NCBI GenBank assembly: GCA_024137785.1
Contig: JAHRHZ010000144.1
Location: 19,092,317-19,156,316 of the forward strand
DNA length: 64,000 bases
Origin: Ginglymostoma cirratum
Taxonomy: Eukaryota
Reading direction: 5' to 3'
Shown: positions 10,278-50,950 of the stretch, in pieces
Layout: each line of letters starts with the position of its first letter
Numbering within the stretch: the stretch's first letter is position 1
Notes under the pieces: model-generated
The model's input: the letters and a program-made list of their open reading frames with translations, nothing else
Told to the model about the DNA's origin: nothing
Databases searched by the model: none
Position numbers and translations under genes: made by a program

Positions 10278-10390
10278 CTTTACATTTCCACCACCTGGAG
10301 TGTGACGTGTATTATCAAGTGAGCCAACCTTAGATTGAGCTTTTTCCTTAAAATCCAGCTTCTGACTTTCAATTCTAACATGCCCTCCAC
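10278..10390 (-). CDS. MAP2: MAP2 repeat-4 exon (113 bp, [38 protein letters not shown])
   Basis: ttgtgtag|GTGGAG...GTAAAG|gtagga; follows a 104-bp intron. Confidence 0.97.
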
Positions 10391-10494
10391 CTACACAAAG
10401 GTAACGAATTGTACTTTGAAATACATTGTAAATAAAATGAATAATAATGCTTGCGTCCAAGATCAGACAAGTAGTAATGAGCAACAGTCCATAC

Positions 10495-10576
10495 CTGGCC
10501 GATAGTGAATGTTGCTGAAAGAGCCACACTTTGACGTGATATGACTCACATCTATTTTCTTAGTAACAATTTGTAC
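10495..10576 (-). CDS. MAP2: MAP2 repeat-3 exon (82 bp, [27 protein letters not shown])
   Basis: ttcttcag|GTACAA...GGCCAG|gtatgg; 82-bp size typical of this tau/MAP2 exon. Confidence 0.96.
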
Positions 10577-25121: not shown

Positions 25122-25450
25122 CTGGCCTCCTCTTGGTTGATGCTTTAGGTTGTCAATTGATCCAATCTTGGATTTGATATTTTTCAGATCTGGCATTGGT
25201 TGGTTGATCACTCGGAGTTGCTTTGGAGTAAGGGGAGATTTTGGAGGAGTGCGGATAATTGCCACTTTCCGTTCTGTGGGCACAAGGATGGGAGATTTGT
25301 GTGTACCAGGAGTGCCAGGAGTGCGGGGAGTCCTGCTGCCTGGTGTACGGGAATAGCTGGGTGGTGTGCCAGGTGTGACTGCAGTTGATCCAGGAGTGGA
25401 GGGTGTCGCAGTACCACTTCTTGCTGACCTGGTGCGAGTTGGTTCAGACC
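25122..25450 (-). CDS. MAP2: MAP2 proline-rich region plus microtubule-binding repeat 1 (329 bp)
   Basis: tttaaag|GGTCTG...GGCCAG|gtatgt; [45 protein letters not shown]. Confidence 0.97.
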
Positions 25451-26989: not shown

Positions 26990-28041
26990 CTGCAGAGAGC
27001 AAACTGTGTTATTACCATCTAAATCCTGTGTATGTGCTTCTTTCCAGAGCAGTGACCTGAAAAAGGGAAAAAAATTCCATGCATTTGCAAGTCAATTGTA
27101 GAATTATTCAACTGAAGAAAAATTGCCTATTCAAGTTATTCTCCGAGAATAAATTATTCCTCAAATTGCACATTCTCCTTCAAACCTCGCATGTAATATA
27201 TTGAGATTTCAAGATGTTATCAGCCCTCTCAGTTCCAGCTAGTTCAAAACACACTAAGGAGGAACTAGTGAATTCCACAGTAGTGAATTTCTGAAAGTTT
27301 GCATATTCACAAGGATCTGAATCAAAGAAAGTAAGAGGAACAGACTTCTGTTTAGTGCCATGCAGTGCTATCAGGATTCTTAAATAATTTTGCAGATAGT
27401 TTCCTGTTAGTTCAGCAGAGATTACAGATATTCATATCATATACATATGGCAACTTATTTTACTGTAGTTCTTGAAACACGTTGAATCTTCCACTTTAAA
27501 CAAAACGCCTTCAGCAAAATTTCAACAAAATTAAAACCATTAAGATATTTAAAATATTAAAATATTAAAAATGTGTATATTTTAAAAGAAAAAAAAACCT
27601 ATTTTCGACCAAGAATCATTATTAATCAGTTTATTGATGTAATCAACACAAATTCAGATCTCTCTGCCCTCTTCCTTGTTCAGAGATTTGCAAATAACAT
27701 ATTTTCAAGCAACTGCTACTACAGGCTACTGATTGTTTTACCAAAATATCTTTTGAAAAATCTGCTGTAAAGTATCCCTAGTTTCAGAATAACATTGAAA
27801 ACCTCATGGTGCAGAAGGGGCTATTTGGCCTGGCATGCATAAGACAACTGAAAGAGTTATTTGGCATAATCTTATCTTCCAGCTTGATCTAGAGCCACAC
27901 AGGTTATACCAACTTCATTGCATAGTCAAGTTAAAAAATATGAGGTTTTCTGCCTTTGCCACCCTTTCAGGCAGTGGGTTTCAGATTCGCACCACTCTTT
28001 GGAGTGGAATAAAGGATCACAACACATCTAACTCTTCCACC

Positions 28042-28717
28042 AGAGATAAAAGGTACTGCAGATGCTGGAGAATCCGAGATAACAAGCATGGGGCTGGATG
28101 AACACAGCAGGTCAAGCAGCATCATAGGAGCAGGAAAACTTGACGTTTCAGGCCTAAACCCTTCATCAGAAATGGGGGAGGGGAAGAGGGTTCTGAANNN
28201 NNNNNNNNNNNNNNNNNNNNNNNNNNNNNNNNNNNNNNNNNNNNNNNNNNNNNNNNNNNNNNNNNNNNNNNNNNNNNNNNNNNNNNNNNNNNNNNNNNNN
28301 NNNNNNNNNNNNNNNNNNNNNNNNNNNNNNNNNNNNNNNNNNNNNNNNNNNNNNNNNNNNNNNNNNNNNNNNNNNNNNNNNNNNNNNNNNNNNNNNNNNN
28401 NNNNNNNNNNNNNNNNNNNNNNNNNNNNNNNNNNNNNNNNNNNNNNNNNNNNNNNNNNNNNNNNNNNNNNNNNNNNNNNNNNNNNNNNNNNNNNNNNNNN
28501 NNNNNNNNNNNNNNNNNNNNNNNNNNNNNNNNNNNNNNNNNNNNNNNNNNNNNNNNNNNNNNNNNNNNNNNNNNNNNNNNNNNNNNNNNNNNNNNNNGCT
28601 TGACGTTTCGGGCCTAGACCCTTCATCAGAAATCCTGAAGGGTCTAGGCCCGAAACGTTAAGCTTTCCTGCTCCTATGATGCTACTTGGCCTGCTGTGTT
28701 CATCCAGCTCCACACCT
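28042..28717. mobile_element. Penelope-like element ends (direct and inverted copies) around an assembly gap
   Basis: gctggatgaacacagcagg...cccttcatcagaaat before and partly after the gap; inverted copy 28635-28717. Confidence 0.7.
28198..28597. other. Assembly gap (400 N)
   Basis: Run of N. Confidence 1.
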
Positions 28718-29209
28718 ACGTATATGTTAATCAATTATTCCATGATTTGTCCATCAGATGATGACCATTTTATTGGTACATGTCAAAGTTAAATTTCTTT
28801 TCTGGTTCTGAAGAAAAAAAAATGTGGCCACTAAATGACTTTCAAAATCTACCCTGTTCCAATGGCATATGGAGAATTAAGAGTAATGGCCTCCAGGTAA
28901 ATCTGCATTCCAGCAGGATTTGAAATATCTCTGCGCTGTACTGAAAAATGTATTGATAAAGGAATGTTTATCTAAAGCAGTTATCAATTTTCCTCAATTG
29001 GTTTGCTAGAAAAGTGATGTTACTGGTATTACTATAATTATAAAGCATTGAGAGGGAGGTTCAACGAAATTCTCAAAAACCTAGATTACAAAACCATAAA
29101 ATGGATTAGTTGCTTATGTTATTGTATAGAACAGCCAGTTAGTTTTCACAAAAATAAAAATAAACAAATTATCACGACAGATATTCATGAAATAATACTT
29201 AATAAATTC

Positions 29210-36040: not shown

Positions 36041-36091
36041 CCTCAAGAAAGCAGCAAGAAAGACCAAAGTAAATGGAAAACATCAACTGTA

Positions 36092-39000
36092 AGACGGGCG
36101 TGCACAAATTTGGTTAGCAAGTAGATGCTGCTAGGGTCTCCCTGTGACCCAGCTTGTGTGGTTGCCACTGCAGCGTTTTTACGTAGCTTGTCCCCTGCAC
36201 TGTTTGGTCGAACCTCACGTGGCTCCTCCCTGGTAACGACAGTGGACGAGAGTACCTTTGTCTTATCTGGCTGGTAGACCTACCTACTGGCTACCTGAAC
36301 GGGGCTAGTACGGTGGGTCCCTCGGTCAGAGGTACAGGTCTTACTCGATCCTCTGCCGGTGATTACGACCAGAGAAAAATTGTCGAACCCGCGTGGGGCA
36401 ATGCGCTGCGCTTTAGTGGTGCCATTAAAGAAATAGTACGGTTGACACTAGTCTTCCTATATCTGGTTGGGCCGGTGACCGGATTAAAAAACTGCCCCAC
36501 AAGTTTGCTAGTGGTGGTAGCTTGCGCAAAGCGTAGTAGCCACAACAAGATTAGGACATCAGTCTCAACAGACGGACAGTTTGAGGCCCATTGTTTCTCA
36601 CCCTGTTTTTGTCCCCAGTTTCAAGCTAACGGGGTCAGAAGGTAGGGGAGATGATGAGAAGGATCTAGCTGTAGAGACAGCCAATGCCTTAGCTCAATCT
36701 TTTGGTGAGATTACAACACAAGTTTTCTACAACAGTAATTTTAGAAATATGGGCAACAAAGTATCAGAGCGTGGAGATACATCTGGTAATTTTAAGGTCA
36801 TCAAACCACCCAAGATGGAATGTAGAATGGAGGTAATACTTCAGTATCCTGTTGACATGTTCTTTTATGATAAGTGTCAGCTTACATGTCCCACAATGGG
36901 GGCATTTCGTTTGCATGTTAAGAAAGTACATGGTGTTAAAGTAATTCGGACAAGTTGCGTGAAGAGTGGAAGATGTGTTGAATATCGTTCTATAGCCTGC
37001 CATTATCTGAAATGTAAAGGTGACAGTAAAAGAGATGTTAACGTGGTTTTTTGAATGTTCAATGTGAAAGTTAAAATTTAGTACGAGGATTGACTGGGGA
37101 CAACATGAAAGACATAAATATGCGGGGTTAAGGAATCAGAAATGGATAGAAAATAGTAGGATGAAGAAAGAGGAGACAAATATAGGTAGAAGAGAGGGGA
37201 TTTGGTCAGGAGAAGAGATTAAATTGTTGATGCCGTTGGAAGAAGTATATAAAGTAGATAAACAAATTAATAAAAAGATAGTGAGCATGATAAATTCTAA
37301 GACACCAAAACAAATTTCTGATAAGCAGAGTTCTTCTTCAGAATAGGGGTAAGGGAAAGGAGGTAATTGTGTCCGGGGATTCACAGGAAGATGTAGGGAC
37401 TGATGGTAAGGATATGTTAGATCAGAGATATGTACAAGGGACACAGGGTAGAGTTGACTCTCGGGAGTTAACAAAGTACACTACTGAGGAATTGTTGGAT
37501 AAAGCAGAGGAATAGCTTAGTGCTAAAGAGGATCAGGAAGTTTTTAAACTTGGCTGATTCCATTACAGGGAGATTATTGAGGGGGGAGGGGAAGGAGCGG
37601 GCTGGTAATAATAGTGATGAAAGTAATAGATCTAGAAGAGAGGACGGTGACCAGCAAGAAAATAATAGAGTGAAACGAAAAGGAAATGGGGCCCAAAGAT
37701 AGTTTGCAAAAAGGAAATCAAACTTCCGTGCAAGCCAGGTGTTATTCAAGACAAATAGGCAACAGCTTGCAAGGGAATTGATGGGAGTGCCTCCCAGTTG
37801 TTTATGCCCCCTTAAGTAAGGGAGAATTGTTTTTAGTATTTGAGGAGAAACTTTCTGTATCTTATGATAAGGCAAATATTACTAGATTTGTACCCTACAG
37901 GGGCGACAGACAATTTAATTGTCTGATGGACTCGGTTGGTAGCGGAGAGGTAGAGGTGGCTATTGGGGAGGCAGACTCGAAAACGGCTGCAGGTCCTGAT
38001 GGGTGGGGATTGAGAGACGTTCAAGAGATCCATCAGAAGGACGTCACTTGTCTCTCACTTTTGTTTACCATATGGATCAGGACAGGTATGATCCCAGATG
38101 TTTTGAAGATTAGTAGGATAGTGTTATTACTAAAGTTGGACAACACAAAGTTTGAAAGACATCGACAACTGGCGACCTATTACCATTGGTCCTATTCTGC
38201 TACGCATCTTCACTCGAATTTTGGCGAGGAGGCTTAGTAGAGTACTGAAATTAAATCAGAAGCAAAAAGGCTTCCTGATAGGATCATCGGAATGTAATGA
38301 GAATACAGTGATCCTTCAGAATATCATAAAGGGAGCAAAGAAGCTGGAGGGGATTTGGCCGTTGTCTTTGTCGATGTGGCGAAAGCGTTCGACTCAGTAG
38401 GGCATAAATTGCTTTCCAGGGTGTTAGAAAGAGTGCGCCTATCGAAGGACTTCATTAGAATGATTATGAATTTCTATACGAATGATTCGACCGTGGTGGA
38501 AGGAAATAGATATAAAATGGACCCTACGGAAGTAAGACGTGGTGTTAAACAAGGGAATCCTTCATCTCCTAAATTGTTTAACATTGCCATGGATCCTTTG
38601 ATAGGCACGTTGGAGGAAACTGAATCGGGAATAATGATGGATCTAGAGGGAGAGCCTATCCATTGTAAGGTGTTGGCATTCACGGATGACATAGCACTCT
38701 TATGTGGATCTCACCTCGGGATGATTAAGAATTTGAAGACCGTACAATGTTTCTGTGATTACACTGGTTGCATGATTAATGTTAAGACCACCAAAGGTTC
38801 CTACTTTGAATGCAAAGGTAGGACATTTTTATACAATCGTTTAAAGGAATGGAAGTTCCGGGGGTGGCTGGGGAGCAGGGTGCGTTGTTCAATATATTAC
38901 CCTGGGTGAGCTAGAAAAGCATATAGGTGTGCCAGTCAATCCGTGGACAGGAATACGACTGGCCGAATGGGAGAAAATGCTTAAGGAATGTGCAGAAAAT

Positions 39001-40638
39001 CTGAGAAGATCAGCTCTTTGACCGATGCAGAAAGTCAAAATTTTTCGAACTTACTTTATCCCCAGATTACACTATCATTTGGTTCTGGCCGAGACGTCTC
39101 AAAATATTTTGTGTCGTTTGGACTCTTTTATCTGAGGTTTTATTAAAGAGATTTTAAATCTACCTTGTTATATATCAAATGGGGTATTATATGCTCATAG
39201 TAGGGACGGTGGTTTAGGGATTCCACATTTGGAGGTCAGGTCCTGATTGCCATTTTGAAAAAAAAAAAACGGCACTGGAAACGTTGGATAGATGAGGCCA
39301 TTCGTGCATCGTTTCGGTTTTGTGGGGAAAGGAATGTGAATGCGATCGTGGAACTAACAAAACTGAAAGTCATGCAAGAAATTTGGTCACCAGGACAGGT
39401 GGGTATGGAGCTCGAGAAAGATATGGGGGCTAAGGAAAAAAAGAGAGTTGGTAACTCGGCTGAACTTGAATTATAATGATTGGAGGGGGATAGAATGGCT
39501 TAGGTAGATGGCCTCACACTGCCAAGGATTAGGCATGCACTACTTTAGAAATGATAAGAAATTAAATGCATGGATCAAAATGGCAACGATCATGAAAACA
39601 TCGAAGGTAATTAATACCTTGCTGGTGCAACGTAATATATATCCAACTACAACAACGATAACTCGCGGAAGACCTCTCTGTATTCAAACATGCCGGAGAT
39701 GTGATGCAACATTACAGACACTCCCGCATATTTCTGGGTGGTGTCCAGCTGTGAAAAATGCATGAATTAAAAGGCATAGTAAGATTATGGAGAGATTATA
39801 TCAATTCATGGGGAATTTCGGTGGGAAAACTTTGGTGGAACTTCGGCTAAAGGACGAAGCAGGAAATTGTGGAAACCGGATCTGATTTTCCAGAAAGATT
39901 TGGTGGTTGTTGTGGTCGATGTAACAGTGAGATTTGGAAAAGGCTTGAGTTGAGAAGACGGCCAAGTATAGGCACCTGTCGGATGGAATTAGAGAATTAA
40001 TGAATTTCTTTAATTCATTATTAAAAAAATAATAATTTCTTTTTATTATTTTATGGTTTTGTAATGGGTGCAAAAGGCAAATGGGCGACAACAAATATTA
40101 AGTTAACGGAAAGTCTTGGAATTCGGAGGCTTCAGTCTTTTGCCTAAGACCTATCTAGGTTAAATGCCTCCAACTCTGAAACTGTTGCAAATCTCCAGTG
40201 ACTGCTGAGAGAGTTGATGGACTCCAATAGCTCTGATATAATTTTAATGCTTGCACATTTTATATTGTTTTAATGGTTTTAGAATTCAATTATACGTATA
40301 TTTTAGACCTTAGTATATTTTGTTTTCTTTAAATCTTTTAGAATTTTATATTGCGTTTTAATTAATAAAGTTGTTTAGTTTTAGTCACTTGTAAGGGTGT
40401 TTTCGTAATAAATTTTCACACAGGCACATCAGATGACGTTATCAGGGTTTATATGCTAATCAACAGGTTGTGTAACCCCGCTCACAGTTCCTGCATATGG
40501 TGTTCTGCTGTATAACAGGAAGACCCATTCCCTTTTTGTAAGATCTAGCTAGTTTAGCTATATATCGGGTTTTAATGGCACGTCGACAAGCGACATTAAA
40601 ACTCGGAAAGGGCACTGTCTTTTTACAGTGTTTTTAAT
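36092..40638 (+). mobile_element. Decayed near full-length R2-clade non-LTR retrotransposon with R2-A-like domain order, antisense in a MAP2 intron
   Basis: Zinc-finger remnants (KCQLTCPTMGAFRLHVKKVH; CVKSGR..IACHYLKC; ECSM..FSTRI..GQHERHK), Myb WSGEEIKLL..KTPKQISDK, RT motifs AAGPDG, WRPITI, FVDVAKAFDSV, GVKQGNPSSP, AFTDD, GGLGIP, then CRRC..LPHISGWC, RH, KPDL, VVVDVTV; many stops and frameshifts. Confidence 0.9.
36096..36280 (+). ncRNA. Degenerate HDV-like ribozyme at the 5' end of the R2-like element
   Basis: P2 GGTCGA (36206) / TAGACC (36275); P3-L3 ACC-TCACGT-GGC; P1 GGGCGTG / TCCTCCC; TGGTAAC junction; P4 GACGAG / CTTTGTC. Confidence 0.6.
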
Positions 40639-40644
40639 ACTGTA

Positions 40645-41070
40645 TTCCTTTTGGCTGCTCCCAGCAAGCAAGGCATTGGCTATATCCAACCAGCCAGACT
40701 TGCCTGCAAAATGCAAAACTGTCCAATATTAGACTGGTTTCATGATCGGACCTCATTTGGTACATAATTCGCATATACAAATAATTATGCTGACAGTGAA
40801 TTTAGGATCATCAGTCAAGGTCGCAGTGTCGACTTGAAGTTACTTTTATTACTACAGAGGTTACTGTTCTTTGCACACAGAAAGAGCATTTGTACTCACT
40901 GCACCTATTTCAACACAACAAGACATGCGACAGCCATTCTCTGGTCAAGGTATTGCCTTGAGAAATGAACCAACATCAACCAACATAAACCACCCGCAGA
41001 GTTTAAATTTAGACAATGCACGGCAGTTAATTTCAGTCATCATCTAGCATTCTCCATGGCAACTCCATTA
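40645..41070 (+). mobile_element. Penelope-like (GIY-YIG) ORF C-terminal fragment abutting the R2-like element
   Basis: Remnants KQGIGYIQPA, NYADSEFRIISQGRSV, VLCTQKEHLYSLHLF resemble PLE endonuclease C-termini. Confidence 0.55.
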
Positions 41071-41074
41071 AAAC

Positions 41075-41613
41075 TCAAATAGCAAGAACTGCAGATGCTG
41101 GAGTCAGAAATTGTGTCAGGTTATGTCGGATCAAGGAGGTGGGGATGCGAGGGAGGCTTGGACATGGGATGAGGCTGGGGGTTGGAGAGAATTTAAGACT
41201 GGTAAATTCCACATTTAGGCCATCGGGCTGTAGGCTCCAGAGGCATATTCTGCCTCAGGAGCCTACAGCCCGATGGCCTAAACGTGGAATTTACCAGTTT
41301 TAAAATCTCCTCACCCCTAGCCTCTTCCCATGTCCAACCCTCCCTCTCATCCCTGCTCCCTTGACCTGTCCATCTTCTCTCCCACCTATCCGCCCCAGCC
41401 ACCTCACTGATCAATCCCCACCACTGCCTACCTGCACTCACCTAGCACCATCCCACCTACCTTCCCCAGGCCCACCCCTCCTCTCTCTATTTATTTCCCA
41501 GCTCCCTTCCCCCTCCCCATTTCTGAAGAAGGGTCCCAACCTGAAACGTCAGCTTTCCTGCTCCTCTGATGCTGCCTGGCCTGCTGTGTTCTTGCAGCTC
41601 CACACTGTGTTGC
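41075..41613 (+). mobile_element. Penelope-like element 3' end with 5' inversion and hammerhead motif
   Basis: IFCLRSLQPDGLNVEFTSF ORF end at about 41246-41302; about 41140-41240 is an inverted copy of 41255-41360; CTGAAGAAGGG..CCTGAAACGTC at 41523-41550. Confidence 0.75.
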
Positions 41614-44814: not shown

Positions 44815-45003
44815 CTGCAGAATTAAAGTGCAAGAAATCACTAATAGCAACAGGGCTCAAATACAGGAAAAAGAAAATTCAAGTTCCTTTTTAAAAATTA
44901 AGTAACATTAAATAATATAATGTAGTACAATATTTATTTATTTTACTTTTAAGAGATTTTATAATTTAGTCATAGCTGATAGCTATTAAGGCTTTATAGG
45001 CAC

Positions 45004-48000
45004 CTTGAGTATCCATCCAGAGGCTGTCTGTATCCATTATGGATTCATCAATGCTCTCGTCCTCTTTCAAGTCTGTAGGGATTTCAATTTTTTCCGGGAT
45101 CAGTGCAATTTGGACAGCTTTTGCAGGTGACTCATAAATCTGTCCTTCTGTTGACCGGGTTTGTTCACTAGGGGCAAGAACATCCTCAACATCACCATCA
45201 TCGGGCATGGCAAACCTCACATTATGACCTACGTCCTTTCCTCCTTCTAGTGTGGTCTGCACAACTGTAATGATGTCATCTTCTACTGTAATGACAGATT
45301 CCACAATTCCCCTCTCCTCTTCAGTTTCTTCTACGAGGATGTTTTCAGATACTTCATAGTCACCGGGATCTTCATGTAGAACAATTTCTGGCACAGGAAC
45401 GTCAAATAACAAATTGGACTTAACTTCCTCTTTAATGGTTTTCTGGGCTTCAGCTGGTTCTTGCACTGGAACAGCTTCAAGGACTTGCTGACCACCGGAT
45501 TCTGCTTTGGAAACTTCACTTGGTGCAGGTCCAGTTTTGCTTTCCATGGTTTCCTCAGTTGTGGCTATTACGCACTCAGCAACAATGTTGGATAAACCGG
45601 GCATCACAACATCTTTCACTCCCTTCTCAGTTTGAATAATTCCTTGCACAGGAGGGGATTTTTCAATTACTTTGTGATCATAATGCATAATTTCTACATC
45701 ACCACTTGGTGCAATATTGTTACAGGGAAGACAGGGCTTGGTATCGAGCTTCCTAATATTATTAGGTTGAATTGTTTCTGGAGCAGGGCCAACCTTCTCA
45801 GTTACCTGAACAATTTGCTCTATTTCAAAACCTACTTCAGGTACTGTATCCTCACTAGGCATAGTAGGCTCAGTGGAAACTATCATCGTTTCTGAAAGTG
45901 GACTGAATTCTTGTATAGGAGCAGTTTTCTCAGATATATTTTGACCAGCAGCCTCCAGTTTTACACTGGTTTCCAATATGTCAGCCTTAGTGAGTGGACT
46001 AGATTTGGATTCCACAGTCTCTTGAAGTTGAGGAGGCTCTTGAGTAGATGCAGTTTTCTCAGGCCCTTTCTGAGAAACGGATTCTGCCACAATCTCCTCA
46101 GTGGGCAATTTGGGCCTGGATTCATCATCTGGGATATTCTTAGGTTGAACAGAGTCTTGAGTCGGAGTAATTTGCTTGAAAATTGTGTGATCTATGCTGT
46201 CTACTTCTATATCCACATCCAGCACATTATCCTGCCTGGGCAAAGTAGGCCTGGGCTTATCTTCCAAGGCTTTCTTGGGTCGAGCTTGTTCTTGAACCGA
46301 GACACTTTTCTCAGACGGTTGGTGATCGGTAGTTTTACGTTTGAAACTCCCTTGTGGCACAGTAACGTCGCTGGGCAAAATATGCCTTGGTTCATCTTCC
46401 ATGGTTAATTGAAGATGTTCCTGAGGAGAAGCTTTCTCAGACGGTTTGTTTTCAATAAATCCTGTTTTCAAAGGTGTTTCCAATACTGCAACATTGCTAG
46501 GTAGATCAGACAAATCGTTAGATTTATCGGCATTTTCGGTTTTATCATCTGGAAACTCAATTGGAGAAATGTCTTTTGGAACTTTCTGAGTGTCAATGAT
46601 AATGGATATATTTTGAGTGCTAGATTCTCTCTGAGCAGGGTCATCAGGTAAATGATCTGGTTCAGTCACTAACTTGGCAACTTGGTTTGAAACACTTAAC
46701 GAAACCGTTTCATCAGTCTTGACTTCGGACTGTGCTTCCAAAATAGTAGCAATTTTTAATTCCCTGTCTTCTGATAAGGTACTAATTCTAAAATGGGAAT
46801 CTTCTTTCTGCTTATTTACATCTATTTGCCTTCTAATACTTTCCTCATCTATAGTCTGAGAAGCAGCACGGATTTGATGAAGGAAAATGCTGCCATCCTC
46901 CAGCGGACTTTTAACTTCCTCAGGAGTTGGTAAGGGAGCAGAGTATTCAAAAACACAGTAGCCCATTTCCTCTGCTTGATTAACATTTTTAATAATCGAT
47001 TTGATGCTTTCAGTTAAAGCCTCTGAGCCAGAAGCTACATTTTCAGTGGCAGATTCGCAGGGCATGGATGCTCTTCGAACAATTTCGATTTCTGTACCTT
47101 CTGAGCTCAGTCTCGTTCTAGTAACTCCTAAATCCAACATTTCAGGCAGGTCAGGAACCACAACAGTGTCATTTTTGTAATCATCTTTCAAAGTACGAGG
47201 GTAAGCATATTGAGAGTCTAATTGCAGGCATTCTGCGGCTGATTTCTCTTCAGCAACAGATACAGTTTTATCCTTTTCCACTTCAACAGGAAAATAAATT
47301 TGCTTCTCCTCAGCAGGTGTTGTTACTGGAAAGAACTCTGCTGACTCCTCTAAACTCATCCCTCTTGTACAGGCTAGAATATCAGAAGCCAAGGGAGACA
47401 GAGATTCTGGGGGACCTTGGCTCTCTGTTTCCACCTCCAGTGCTATTGAATCCAAAGACGCTGCAGGTAAATTCAACACCAGCTTTTGTAGTTCTTTATC
47501 AATATTTGCATCAGCACTAGAATTGGTTTGTTGAGATATTGCTGAGGGGCGCTCCTCTTTGGCCAAATGGCTTAGCTGAATAGGTAAAGGAGTTTCATTG
47601 GATTTAGCTTCAACAGGCAACACTTTAGCCTGTACATCAACAGGCGACGCATTAGCCTGTACATCAACAGGCACAGATGTCTGCGCAAGTGTGCTATAAT
47701 GAATTCCTTCGGCTGATACATCATTTTCAACTTTGTGGACATCCACTTCCGATTTTTCATGTGGGCCCTTCGAGAATTGTGGCACCACATGAGGAAGTCT
47801 TGAATTGTTTTCTTCTGTAATGGTCATTTCATAATAACCATCTTCAGGTGGTTTGGTACCATTTTTCCCATCATCTTTCAGAACAAATGTTTCAAAATAT
47901 TTTGACATTTCTGGTTGATCCTCCTCGATCTTGACTTTTGAGCCCACGTTAAAGGAGCCATATTGTTTATTTTGCACCGTTAGACTAGTGAAGCTTTGGG

Positions 48001-49446
48001 AATTTTTATCAGAATAAACATTTGAATCCGATAATGGGTTCACATTTTGTGGTTCCGTTTCTTTCTCTTTACCTTTCTCTTGTTGAATGCTTTTTTCTTC
48101 CGTTTTCATAGGTGTATCACCAACTTTTTTGATATTTGAATCCATGCTACACGGCTCTTGTTTCATCCTCTCAAGCACGGAGTCTTGACTTAAAAGGGCA
48201 TCACTAGTAATGGGATGCATGCCACATTGTACATTTAGATTAGATTCCTCCACATACGACTGGGCAGTCACAGCATCAGGCAACTGATAAACCTCTGCTA
48301 CCTCAAGGTTGGCTTCAATTTCTTTAAATAGAAGATTAGTTGGTTGTTGTTCAGACACATGTTTAGAGTATCCAGTTTGTAATAACTCTGTCGTACTGTA
48401 CATTGTCTCTACTGTTGCTTTTCCATTCAAATGTTCTAAATGATGTTCTGCAGCATCTGTAGAGCTGTATTCAACGCATTCTGACCTGTCCTCTGGCATT
48501 GAAAATACATCCGCTATATTTTCAACCAGCTTTATTGTATCTGGTGTATCTTTTCTTATATCACTAGAACCTTCTAAAGCTACAGGTTTGTCTTCAAGTG
48601 CACTGTGCGCAATTACAGGTAATTTGTCTATATGCAATTCCTCATGTACTTGTGGCTTTTCCTGGAGCACGTTTTGCACTCTGCTTTCAGGGACTGAAGT
48701 GTTGGTTGCGGCCAAGTCTATTTTTGCCTTTAGAGGAGGTAACACGTAATTATCGTCTGCTACTGTTACGCCTGTAAGCGATTGCCCTTTTAGCGAAGCA
48801 CTTTCACTGTCCTTCAGTGAATCTTTTGCAGAAGCTATTTCAATATTTGGGGAAATAGCCTTTTGTTTACAGATATCTGTATCTGAAATCCCTGTACTGG
48901 GCTGTTTTGATGAATCTGGAGTTTCAAAACTATCAAGAGATTTTTCACTTTGAACTGGAACAGATTTGCCAGGCAGTGCTTCTGCCAGAGTGTTTTGTGG
49001 TTTCATGATTTCATCTGTTTTCTTGGCAGAACCTGATTGCATATGGATAGCTTTACTCTCTGCTGCCACCACGGAGATGCATTCATCTTCACAAAGACTG
49101 GACTGCAGTGAATTTGCACGATGGCTAGTTGCGGTTTCAACACTCAAAGCCACTAAGTCTTCTCGACGTGGCTCAGTCTTGAATGAAACAGGAACAGGTT
49201 CTGTTTGCAAAACAGCTGAAGTTAAATCCTGCTTCTTGGAATCGGCTTCCTCTGCTGTTTGGATGACGTCATCATTATATTTTTCCAGTGTCGATAAAGG
49301 TGGCAGGTCAGATTTTTGCTGTTCAGGAATATTCTTATCTTTGAACTCTGTCACTGACACTTCTTGCAACGACAATCTTTCTCCACAAGTAACAGAGGAT
49401 TCTCCACTTGTTGACACCTTGTCCATCTTCGTGGCTGTAAGCAAAT
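45004..49446 (-). CDS. MAP2: MAP2 large projection-domain exon (4443 bp; exon 9 equivalent)
   Basis: Within ORF 44966..49465; actttag|AT TTG CTT (DLLTATKM) to SLWMDTQ G|gtgcct; conserved MAP2 blocks MSKYFET, LSPLASDIL, PDLPEMLDL, EEMGYCVF, EDDIITVVQTT, VRFA, DESIMDTDSLWMDTQ. Confidence 0.96.
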
Positions 49447-50950
49447 CTAAAGTAGTTTGTTGCATGCATATAGTTAACTGTTACTAATAGGGAAAACCAT
49501 TCCATTTCATATATTCCTACCCCCAGTCAAAAGGGTGTGTGTTGAATAAAAATGAGAAGTGCAAATTTGTTCAACTCTGCAGCAAAACATTCAGCATTGG
49601 TGAAAACAGACTGAATACAGTATTGGGCCTAAACTGTTCCTAAGCTGCAACTGATTCTCAGACTTGCTTAGTTATACTTAAAAGAAAACCACATTTTTAA
49701 GATAAGTTAGCAATACATTAATTCAGAAGAAAAGATACACAAACCAACCGCTAAAACTTCTAAAATTTAAAATTCCGTGTTATTTTATTCTGTAAGATGA
49801 AAACAAAACTATGTTGTATGTTGATCAGTGATTTATCTCAAGAATAGAAAGTGTGTTTGTTTCTCTATTTATCTTTCCAGATGCATCTCTTTGCTTTCTT
49901 AGAAAGTGGATGAATACATGTAATGAAGCTTTTTTGACTTTCCCTCATTGTCTTTCTTTTTAAAATATGTGTGTATGTGGCTGTCTTATACTCTACGTTG
50001 TTTGTCATATTTCTATTACTGACGGATTTTTTTGTGTGAGATTGTCTCCTTAGCTCCATTTCCTTTTTTAAAACCTCCTCTCTATACCACTTATAATTTT
50101 GTTTTAATTTTATAATCAGTTTTTCATCTCTTTGGGAGACGCAGATGCATTATAATTCTAGTCAGATAAATTCTTTGGTGTCTTCCTTGACAAAGAAAGG
50201 ATGTGGGTTATGGAGTTCAAGGGCAGAAGAGAAGGTATGCAGGGTTGTACTTCTACACCAGGATATATACTCTATCATCATCATGCTTGCCACGCAAGTC
50301 TTTATATAACTAAAGACATTATCCTCAAAATAATTTTAGCACAATCCTATTTCCACAATCCTCCAACTGTACACTTAATTTAAAAAAAAAAGCTTCTCAC
50401 TAACACCATTTTCATTCTTAACCAGCTGATCATCTTAAAAACAGAAGTGATTAATTAATGGTAAGCACTTGCCATAGCCCGAATAAAATAATAAATGCAA
50501 GATGCCAGCACCAAAACACGAAGCAAAACAATCTCTTTTCAAAATAATCCCAGAGATAAGCTTAAAAATACAGAAATGCAACTTAAAAAAAGCTTCGAAT
50601 CATGAATAAGTCTACGAATTAGAAAGCAAGTGAATCAACTCTAAAATAATTAATACACATTAGCAATGTAGCTGGCAAACATTTAGGCAATGAAAAGCCT
50701 GTGCTTTTTAAAAAATAAAATCAACTTGGTTGCAAAGCGTGTGACATCATGGAAACAAAATAACTCAAAATGTTAGGAGGAGTGGTGGGAAATTATTGTT
50801 GCTTCTGTCGCCAGCATCAGTCAGCTAAAAGCAATTTATGCCCAACGATTAAATTATCCTGAAAGCAACATATCTACCAGTAAACACTTGGAAGTGATAC
50901 AATACTCAAAAGGCATTTCTTATTTTGTGGAAGTTAGCAGGAAGACACAC

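Follow-up and report, generated by a model that had tools for sequence, protein, structure and literature searches.

A damaged HDV-like ribozyme core in an intronic lineage-A R2 relic of a shark, and its dispersed relatives

The window analysed here is a 64,000-nt stretch of Ginglymostoma cirratum DNA, which contains on its forward strand a decayed R2 non-LTR retrotransposon of lineage A that lacks about the first 31 nt of its family (36129..40637). These limits come from DNA homology and protein pieces, with homology to other copies starting at 36129-36137 and ending at 40633-40642. The minus strand carries a MAP2-like host gene, represented by a large exon (44969..49480; Pfam MAP2_projctn, E = 1.5e-60) and by further MAP2-like exons recognised from tau-type repeat motifs in six-frame translation (~25170-25250 and ~10300-10540). 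Since the element sits between the projection-domain exon and the tau-repeat exons, it is intronic and antisense to its host gene. Elsewhere in the window, a low-GC segment at ~27970-28730, open in many frames on both strands, is probably a simple tandem repeat, and 41026-41500 is a very high-copy repeat (read depth >100,000), probably a common shark SINE or LINE end.

Residues 90-1289 of a shark R2 protein of 1289 aa (P0004) are matched collinearly by the element in several frames (tblastn), and the nine listed protein pieces contain 18 stop codons. The reverse transcriptase remnant (38301..38906, forward strand; Pfam RVT_1, E = 7.7e-20) is 49-54% identical to its best database relatives, which are shark R2-like proteins, and among its five best PDB matches four R2-named or R2-length proteins rank above LINE-1. 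Upstream, the remnants of three N-terminal zinc fingers and a Myb-like domain (36710..37328, forward strand) align with residues 90-319 of P0004, their motifs being read by eye in the translation of broken frames. Together with a C-terminal RLE endonuclease and a single ORF, these form the domain set of lineage A, to which the collinear match with P0004 assigns the element. The reverse transcriptase is closest to R2 proteins and nests among shark R2-like rows in two trees, both of which consist of R2 sequences only and take a single turtle protein (P0006) as root; the first dropped 6 of 41 rows for low cover (L021, L033, L038, L046, L089 and L093) and the second used 18 chosen rows. The window copy is not inserted at the 28S R2 site: the window has no 28S match, and the 3' flank of the element agrees with the target at 2 of 5 bases. 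Among its relatives the likeness to the target is relaxed.

A preliminary description of this DNA had placed an HDV-like ribozyme fold at the element's 5' end. Rfam returns nothing at gathering score in the 64-kb window and gives six matches near the ribozyme, all at chance level, so the test had to be comparative; a plain minimum free energy fold of 36096-36285 is free of pseudoknots and uninformative. Judged against the other copies, the HDV-like R2 ribozyme core at 36205-36371 is real, though likely dead, and the comparison confirms that it belongs to an R2 element lying outside rDNA, at its 5' end. The parts upheld by the other copies are, on the forward strand, the 5' strand of P2 (36205..36211), P3 (36212-36214/36221-36223), L3 (36215-36220), the 3' strand of P1, or P1' (36224-36231), and the GG of P1.1 (36232-36233), all placed by alignments A3 and A4 and their pair table except the P2 strand, which is placed by its pairing partner. 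The J1/2 remnant (36134..36202, forward strand; alignment A4 and pair counts) consists of the GGGTC/GACCC hairpin, likewise upheld, an orphan 3' strand (~36154-36164) that lost its 5' partner with the head, and a helix at 36166-36173/36195-36202. In alignment A4 J1/2 helix a is paired in 82% of cells and shows two-sided changes at 3 of its 10 pairs, and helix c is paired in 92% of cells and shows them at 4 of 8; the J1/2 region of L037 taken alone has unremarkable stability (z = -1.2).

Downstream of P1.1 the preliminary assignments do not stand. What had been read as J4/2 (GCTGG) and the 3' strand of P2 (TAGACC) at 36270-36280 lies inside a predicted P4 hairpin of 122 nt (36237..36358, forward strand; -57.4 kcal/mol, z = -4.24, none of 200 shuffles equally stable), which in predicted folds also displaces the short P4 proposed earlier (GACGAG/CTTTGTC). 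The outer fold of this hairpin is the same in a six-copy alignment, where a 30-pair consensus forms with a two-sided change at just 1 of the 30 pairs. Beyond it, on the same strand, follow J4/2 (36359..36363), with the catalytic position at 36360, and the 3' strand of P2 (36364..36371), which has one bulged base (36365) and pairs 7/7 by Watson-Crick, through 36364 and 36366-36371, with the P2 5' strand. A one-bulge partner of this quality is expected by chance at 2.8% per 200 nt, and the earlier 5/6 partner at 7.6% per 60 nt. A J4/2 motif followed by a P2 partner about 125 nt past P1.1 also occurs in L033, L034, L035, L036, L039, L040 and L080, and L037 and L038 are interrupted before J4/2. 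The core thus has P2 closing after J4/2, P3 and the nested strand order of HDV-like ribozymes (P2 7/7, P3 2/3). A second P2 register through 36268-36275 was considered by eye and dropped when the distant J4/2-P2 was found.

Across alignment A4, 80.6% of 371 cells are paired in the revised structure, a figure that took the earlier short P4 as one helix, which is not evidence now that the long hairpin is favoured; the slid structure pairs in 33-49% of cells. As many pairs were reached in 2 of 500 shuffles, compared with 16 of 500 for the earlier structure (76.6% of 137 cells), and these counts are not probabilities, the structure having been drawn from the same rows. P1 is a weak helix, 53% paired across the decayed copies, with 6 of 7 pairs in L033 and L037, 5 in L038, 4 in L036, 2 in L034 and 1 in L080.

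We give very little credence to the compact fold proposed at first, with P1 starting at 36096, J4/2 at 36270 and P2 ending at 36280, as a working and 5'-complete ribozyme. All 16 of its quoted motifs are present where they were placed, its P4 can pair in 91% of cells and its P2 is paired in 75% of cells across copies. Those P2 pairs are mostly G-U, however, with only 1-4 of 6 being Watson-Crick in other copies, and the helix fails in L036, L037, L039 and L080; the bases of its J4/2 and P2 fold into the long P4, and its L3 is short of one P1.1 C. Its P1 is at chance level, as 39% of 5000 random 60-nt stretches contain a G-started 7-mer with at least 5 of 7 pairs, and lies outside the family homology, at a point where the orthologous copy described below has 46 more letters.

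The segment 36096..36130 (no strand assigned), which holds that putative P1 strand, is likely host flank outside the element. It also holds two of the J1/2 helices proposed earlier (CACAA/TTGTG and TAGCA/TGCTA), and it does not resemble the family head above chance: of 2774 random stretches, 40% score as well as 36084-36128, while each of the six true heads beats all 2774. This head, about 31 nt long and beginning with a G-run, is common to 6 of 8 other copies with a 5' region (L033-L038); of the other two, L040 breaks off close to where the window copy does, and L039 has nothing upstream of the core. When the head was searched for with a strict pattern, L037 alone matched. The family's 5' end is fixed by L036, in which a target duplication of ~50 bp extends up to the G-run; the empty site there is similar to the 28S target. 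L036 is the only one of nine copies tested, the window copy included, in which a target duplication was found, and long target duplications are unusual for canonical R2. With its position at G000:C77, ~24285600-24290150, it is also the best-preserved copy of the family.

The orthologous locus of organism B, a related species, recovered in three runs with one contig each, has the flank up to 36130, the element from 36132 and 46 letters in between, and in it the 36096-36130 stretch is continuous with the upstream flank. The count of 46 letters, which are known by number only, would suit the absent head together with a little flank. The simplest reading of these alignments is likely that the head was deleted in the lineage of the window species, although an insertion in organism B may be responsible instead. 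The view that the window copy is 5'-complete gives way to one in which its ~31-nt head is absent, and the idea that the element carries its own P1 holds for the family, through the internal head, and not for this copy, which has no P1 5' strand.

Further damage affects the core itself. Position 36360 is T in the window copy and in run X1 of organism A, and its equivalent is C in all six family copies that reach it (L033, L034, L035, L036, L039 and L040), in L080, and in every organism-B contig covering the position, the ortholog included. L3 lacks one C of the CC that pairs with GG in P1.1, a helix with 2/2 Watson-Crick pairs in L033, L034, L037, L038 and L080; one P3 pair is A-C, and the P1 3' strand carries an extra base. 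The loss of the L3 C is probably older than the change to T and appears to precede the split from organism B, because the ortholog aligns without a gap there. The catalytic C is described as essential in two accounts of HDV-like ribozymes (PMC11331408; PMC3774820). With T at the catalytic position and one L3 C missing, the window RNA is therefore predicted not to cleave, and a cut just 5' of G36096, as first suggested, would not be expected from a copy that also has no head and hence no 6-7 bp P1 starting at a cleavage-site G. The raw RNA runs X17 (24% read) and X18 (57% read) gave 0 reads on 36113-36450, which has no bearing on expression. The copy is likely inactive, and is in itself an ordinary dead relic.

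The relatives of this relic are dispersed through the 4.36-Gb genome, where DNA searches found at least 7-12 places each and a protein search at least 31 matches, the copies being broken and 60-80% alike. At 10 of 21 dispersed 3' junctions, at least four of the first five downstream bases agree with 28S, with a chance rate of 5.8% over six offsets; the count sets aside 10 loci without a profile match, 3 that stop short of the end, and L085 and L115 as circular, and the junction position was itself set partly from L036, L043 and L085. L043 and L115 have downstream 28S (30 and 36 nt) with upstream 28S not above chance, and L038 has a shorter downstream tail seen by eye. Five places matched a search pattern in which the element's 3' end runs into the 28S target, namely L043, L115 and three for which no element homology was shown. 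In L115 (7328-7420) and L043 (2625-2656) element 3' ends are followed by 28S, L115 comprising a 59-nt tail only.

That the dispersed copies were originally inserted in rDNA and only afterwards left it along with short stretches of 28S, as orphons or eroded rDNA pseudogenes, and so would not be mis-targeted insertions, is in our view improbable. Such an origin would suit L085, which is within a 28S pseudogene, and the downstream 28S of L043, L115 and L038, and Kojima et al. describe decayed R2s in birds that have fragmented 28S or non-rRNA sequence at their flanks (PMC5035012). It sits poorly, though, with the ~50-bp duplication in L036, which is of a non-rDNA target, and with the 28-29 of 33 stretches without a 28S match at E 0.01 (the listed matches being L085, L043, L081 and L094); moreover, flanks cease to resemble 28S right after 3-5 bases, where likeness within the element still stands at 65-80%.

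Several relatives can be set in register with the genome's own 28S, forming a series from 28S through L085, L081/L094 and L080 to the family, with the register of the J1/2 hairpin common to all, as is the J1/2 strand that pairs with 28S-derived bases. L085 (2052-5960), a lineage-A R2 relic within a dispersed 28S pseudogene fragment, takes its P1 strand from 28S. L081 and L094 are dispersed, and their first 23-24 nt are 28S -28 sequence, in the absence of other 28S; these stretches (L081 1401-1424, L094 2410-2432) are likely fossil footprints of cleavage at -28. L080 has a drifted version of the segment with a 28S-type P1', and the family itself has a G-run head with a C-run P1'. The likeness of 28S to the head is weak when taken alone (4% of random stretches score as high). 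We infer that in six other copies the family head is a drifted duplicate of this segment, which makes P1 self-contained. Eickbush et al. (2013; PMC3774820) predicted in their Fig 8 that a duplicated 28S P1 strand would be internalised, and the sequence series from 28S to the family matches steps d-e of that figure. The relatives likely record elements taking over a piece of rRNA as their own start.

The closest known systems are two lineage-A R2s from bamboo sharks, R2-1_CPu and R2-1_CPl (Table S2 of Hassan et al. 2026, PMC13188248). P0004 agrees in length with the ORF given there for R2-1_CPu and is taken to be that element. In the first 400 letters, inspected by eye, the core, J1/2 helices, long P4 and distant J4/2-P2 are those of the family; R2-1_CPu shares the head as well, its internal G-run forming 7/7 P1 pairs, and has 28S on both sides. 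Three zinc fingers and Myb are present, and the reverse transcriptase is 52% identical to that of the window element. The two bamboo shark elements reside in 28S rDNA with long ORFs, whereas the window copy is intronic, decayed and headless, with T at 36360. The key sequence type is already deposited as R2-1_CPu, and PMC13188248 contains no ribozyme analysis, the word occurring twice, in the reference list. In either tree R2-1_CPu is outside the window's clade, with the grouping not rejected (AU p = 0.16). Given this placement, and the 28S-type P1' of L080, which belongs to the sister clade, there may have been two origins of the internal P1.

The R2 ribozymes described by Eickbush et al. (2013; PMC3774820) share with the family the order of the double pseudoknot, a P1 of 6-7 bp, conserved P3, L3 and P1.1, variable J1/2 and P4, and the catalytic C. 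The shark material differs in that the internal strand can still be recognised as 28S-derived and P1 occurs in both states among the relics of one genome, and the window copy differs in failing at the catalytic C, P1.1 and P1. Within the same genome, L021 (4004-7570, G000:C102) is an R2 found in 28S that belongs to another lineage, a full-length, decayed two-zinc-finger element within a degenerate copy of 28S. At E 1e-6 it does not match the window element at the DNA level. Its compact ribozyme has the same P3/L3 core and a J1/2 helix pairing with the 28S segment, but takes its P1 5' strand from 28S at -28, has short J1/2 and P4, and resembles R2-2_STig. L046 is a 1-kb 5'-truncated copy with the 3' end of L021.

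A self-contained P1 had been taken to allow survival outside rDNA, a step that the comparison does not support. In its full form, this account has the family leaving rDNA and replicating from ordinary chromosomal sites, its ribozyme freeing it from read-through RNA, and we regard it as unlikely while still deserving consideration. There are at least 12 copies of the window's clade at unrelated sites, six of which share derived changes in the head relative to 28S; several subfamilies exist; and no member was found in the assembly's 28S units among the 4 of 968 rDNA candidates scored (lower bounds). Non-specific R2 families are known in flatworms, and R2NS-1_SMed and R2NS-1_CSi have copies at non-rDNA sites, as here (Kojima et al. 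2016; PMC5035012). Yet the copies of those families are >98% identical to their consensus, and the shark copies, with their broken sequences and target-like 3' junctions, are not young, near-identical insertions made irrespective of target. The 28S tails of two or three copies point to a source in rDNA, and the number of copies is low for a genome of this size. The same head is present in R2-1_CPu, which is inserted in 28S, and clades that depend on 28S for P1 (L081, L094 and L080) are equally dispersed, so that an own P1 is not needed for dispersal. Drosophila R2s are wholly self-contained yet rDNA-specific, according to PMC3774820 and PMC13580325. Absence from rDNA can also mislead, as copies within rDNA are purged while ectopic ones persist, the rates of loss differing inside and outside it (PMC13580325). 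About as unlikely is an extended version of this history, in which a shark R2 internalised the 28S P1 strand, became independent of rDNA and then replicated for a long time from chromosomal sites with relaxed targeting and long duplications; if true, it would be the first vertebrate R2 to have left rDNA, with the intermediate steps fossilised in one genome.

The reading that we favour, and consider probable, is that the window ribozyme is a damaged and likely inactive remnant of an off-target lineage-A R2 insertion from a source resident in 28S rDNA. The dispersed copies would likewise be off-target fossils of rDNA-resident elements and likely not a lineage freed from rDNA. For this account we infer the fold, cleavage, rDNA source and order of losses from sequence; the coordinates, homology limits, T at 36360, 46 extra ortholog letters and 28S-like junctions are direct observations. 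The source ribozyme would have formed P1 from its own G-rich 5' head, the drifted 28S -28 duplicate, and folded through a J1/2 of ~105 nt, P2/P3/L3/P1.1, the 122-nt P4 and a J4/2 whose catalytic C corresponds to 36360. By analogy with R2 biochemistry, a cut just before the G-run would free the RNA from the rRNA co-transcript, and mis-priming by the R2 protein likely followed, at a place in the chromosomes with a loose resemblance to the 28S target. Once the copy was inserted, the L3 C was likely lost before organism B split off; later, in the lineage of the window species, the catalytic C would have been lost, likely along with the head, and the ORF decayed. Points that weigh against this reading are the lack of a clade member in the 28S units found among the 4 of 968 rDNA candidates scored, the P1 paired at only 53%, the weak likeness of 28S to the head, the placement of R2-1_CPu outside the window's clade, and the window flank with 2 of 5 target bases; the short 28S tails could also stem from insertion into small fragments of 28S.

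The relatives are more useful than the window copy. One genome contains 28S-supplied P1 strands, ectopic copies starting at -28 and a drifted internal P1, a natural series for the route proposed in Fig 8 by Eickbush et al. (2013). The dispersed lineage-A R2 relics, about 30 in number and with target-like junctions, provide a natural record of R2 mis-insertion sites that is relevant to how specific R2-based gene insertion is. In the literature covered, with subscription journals largely outside it, neither the series nor the off-target record is described for sharks. The contigs that carry the shark proteins P0002, P0003 and P0005 measure 0.25-1.7 Mb, so that dispersed R2 relics may be widespread in sharks. 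In the present genome, L077-L095 comprise about 19 further dispersed R2-like relics, which fall into at least two other clades.
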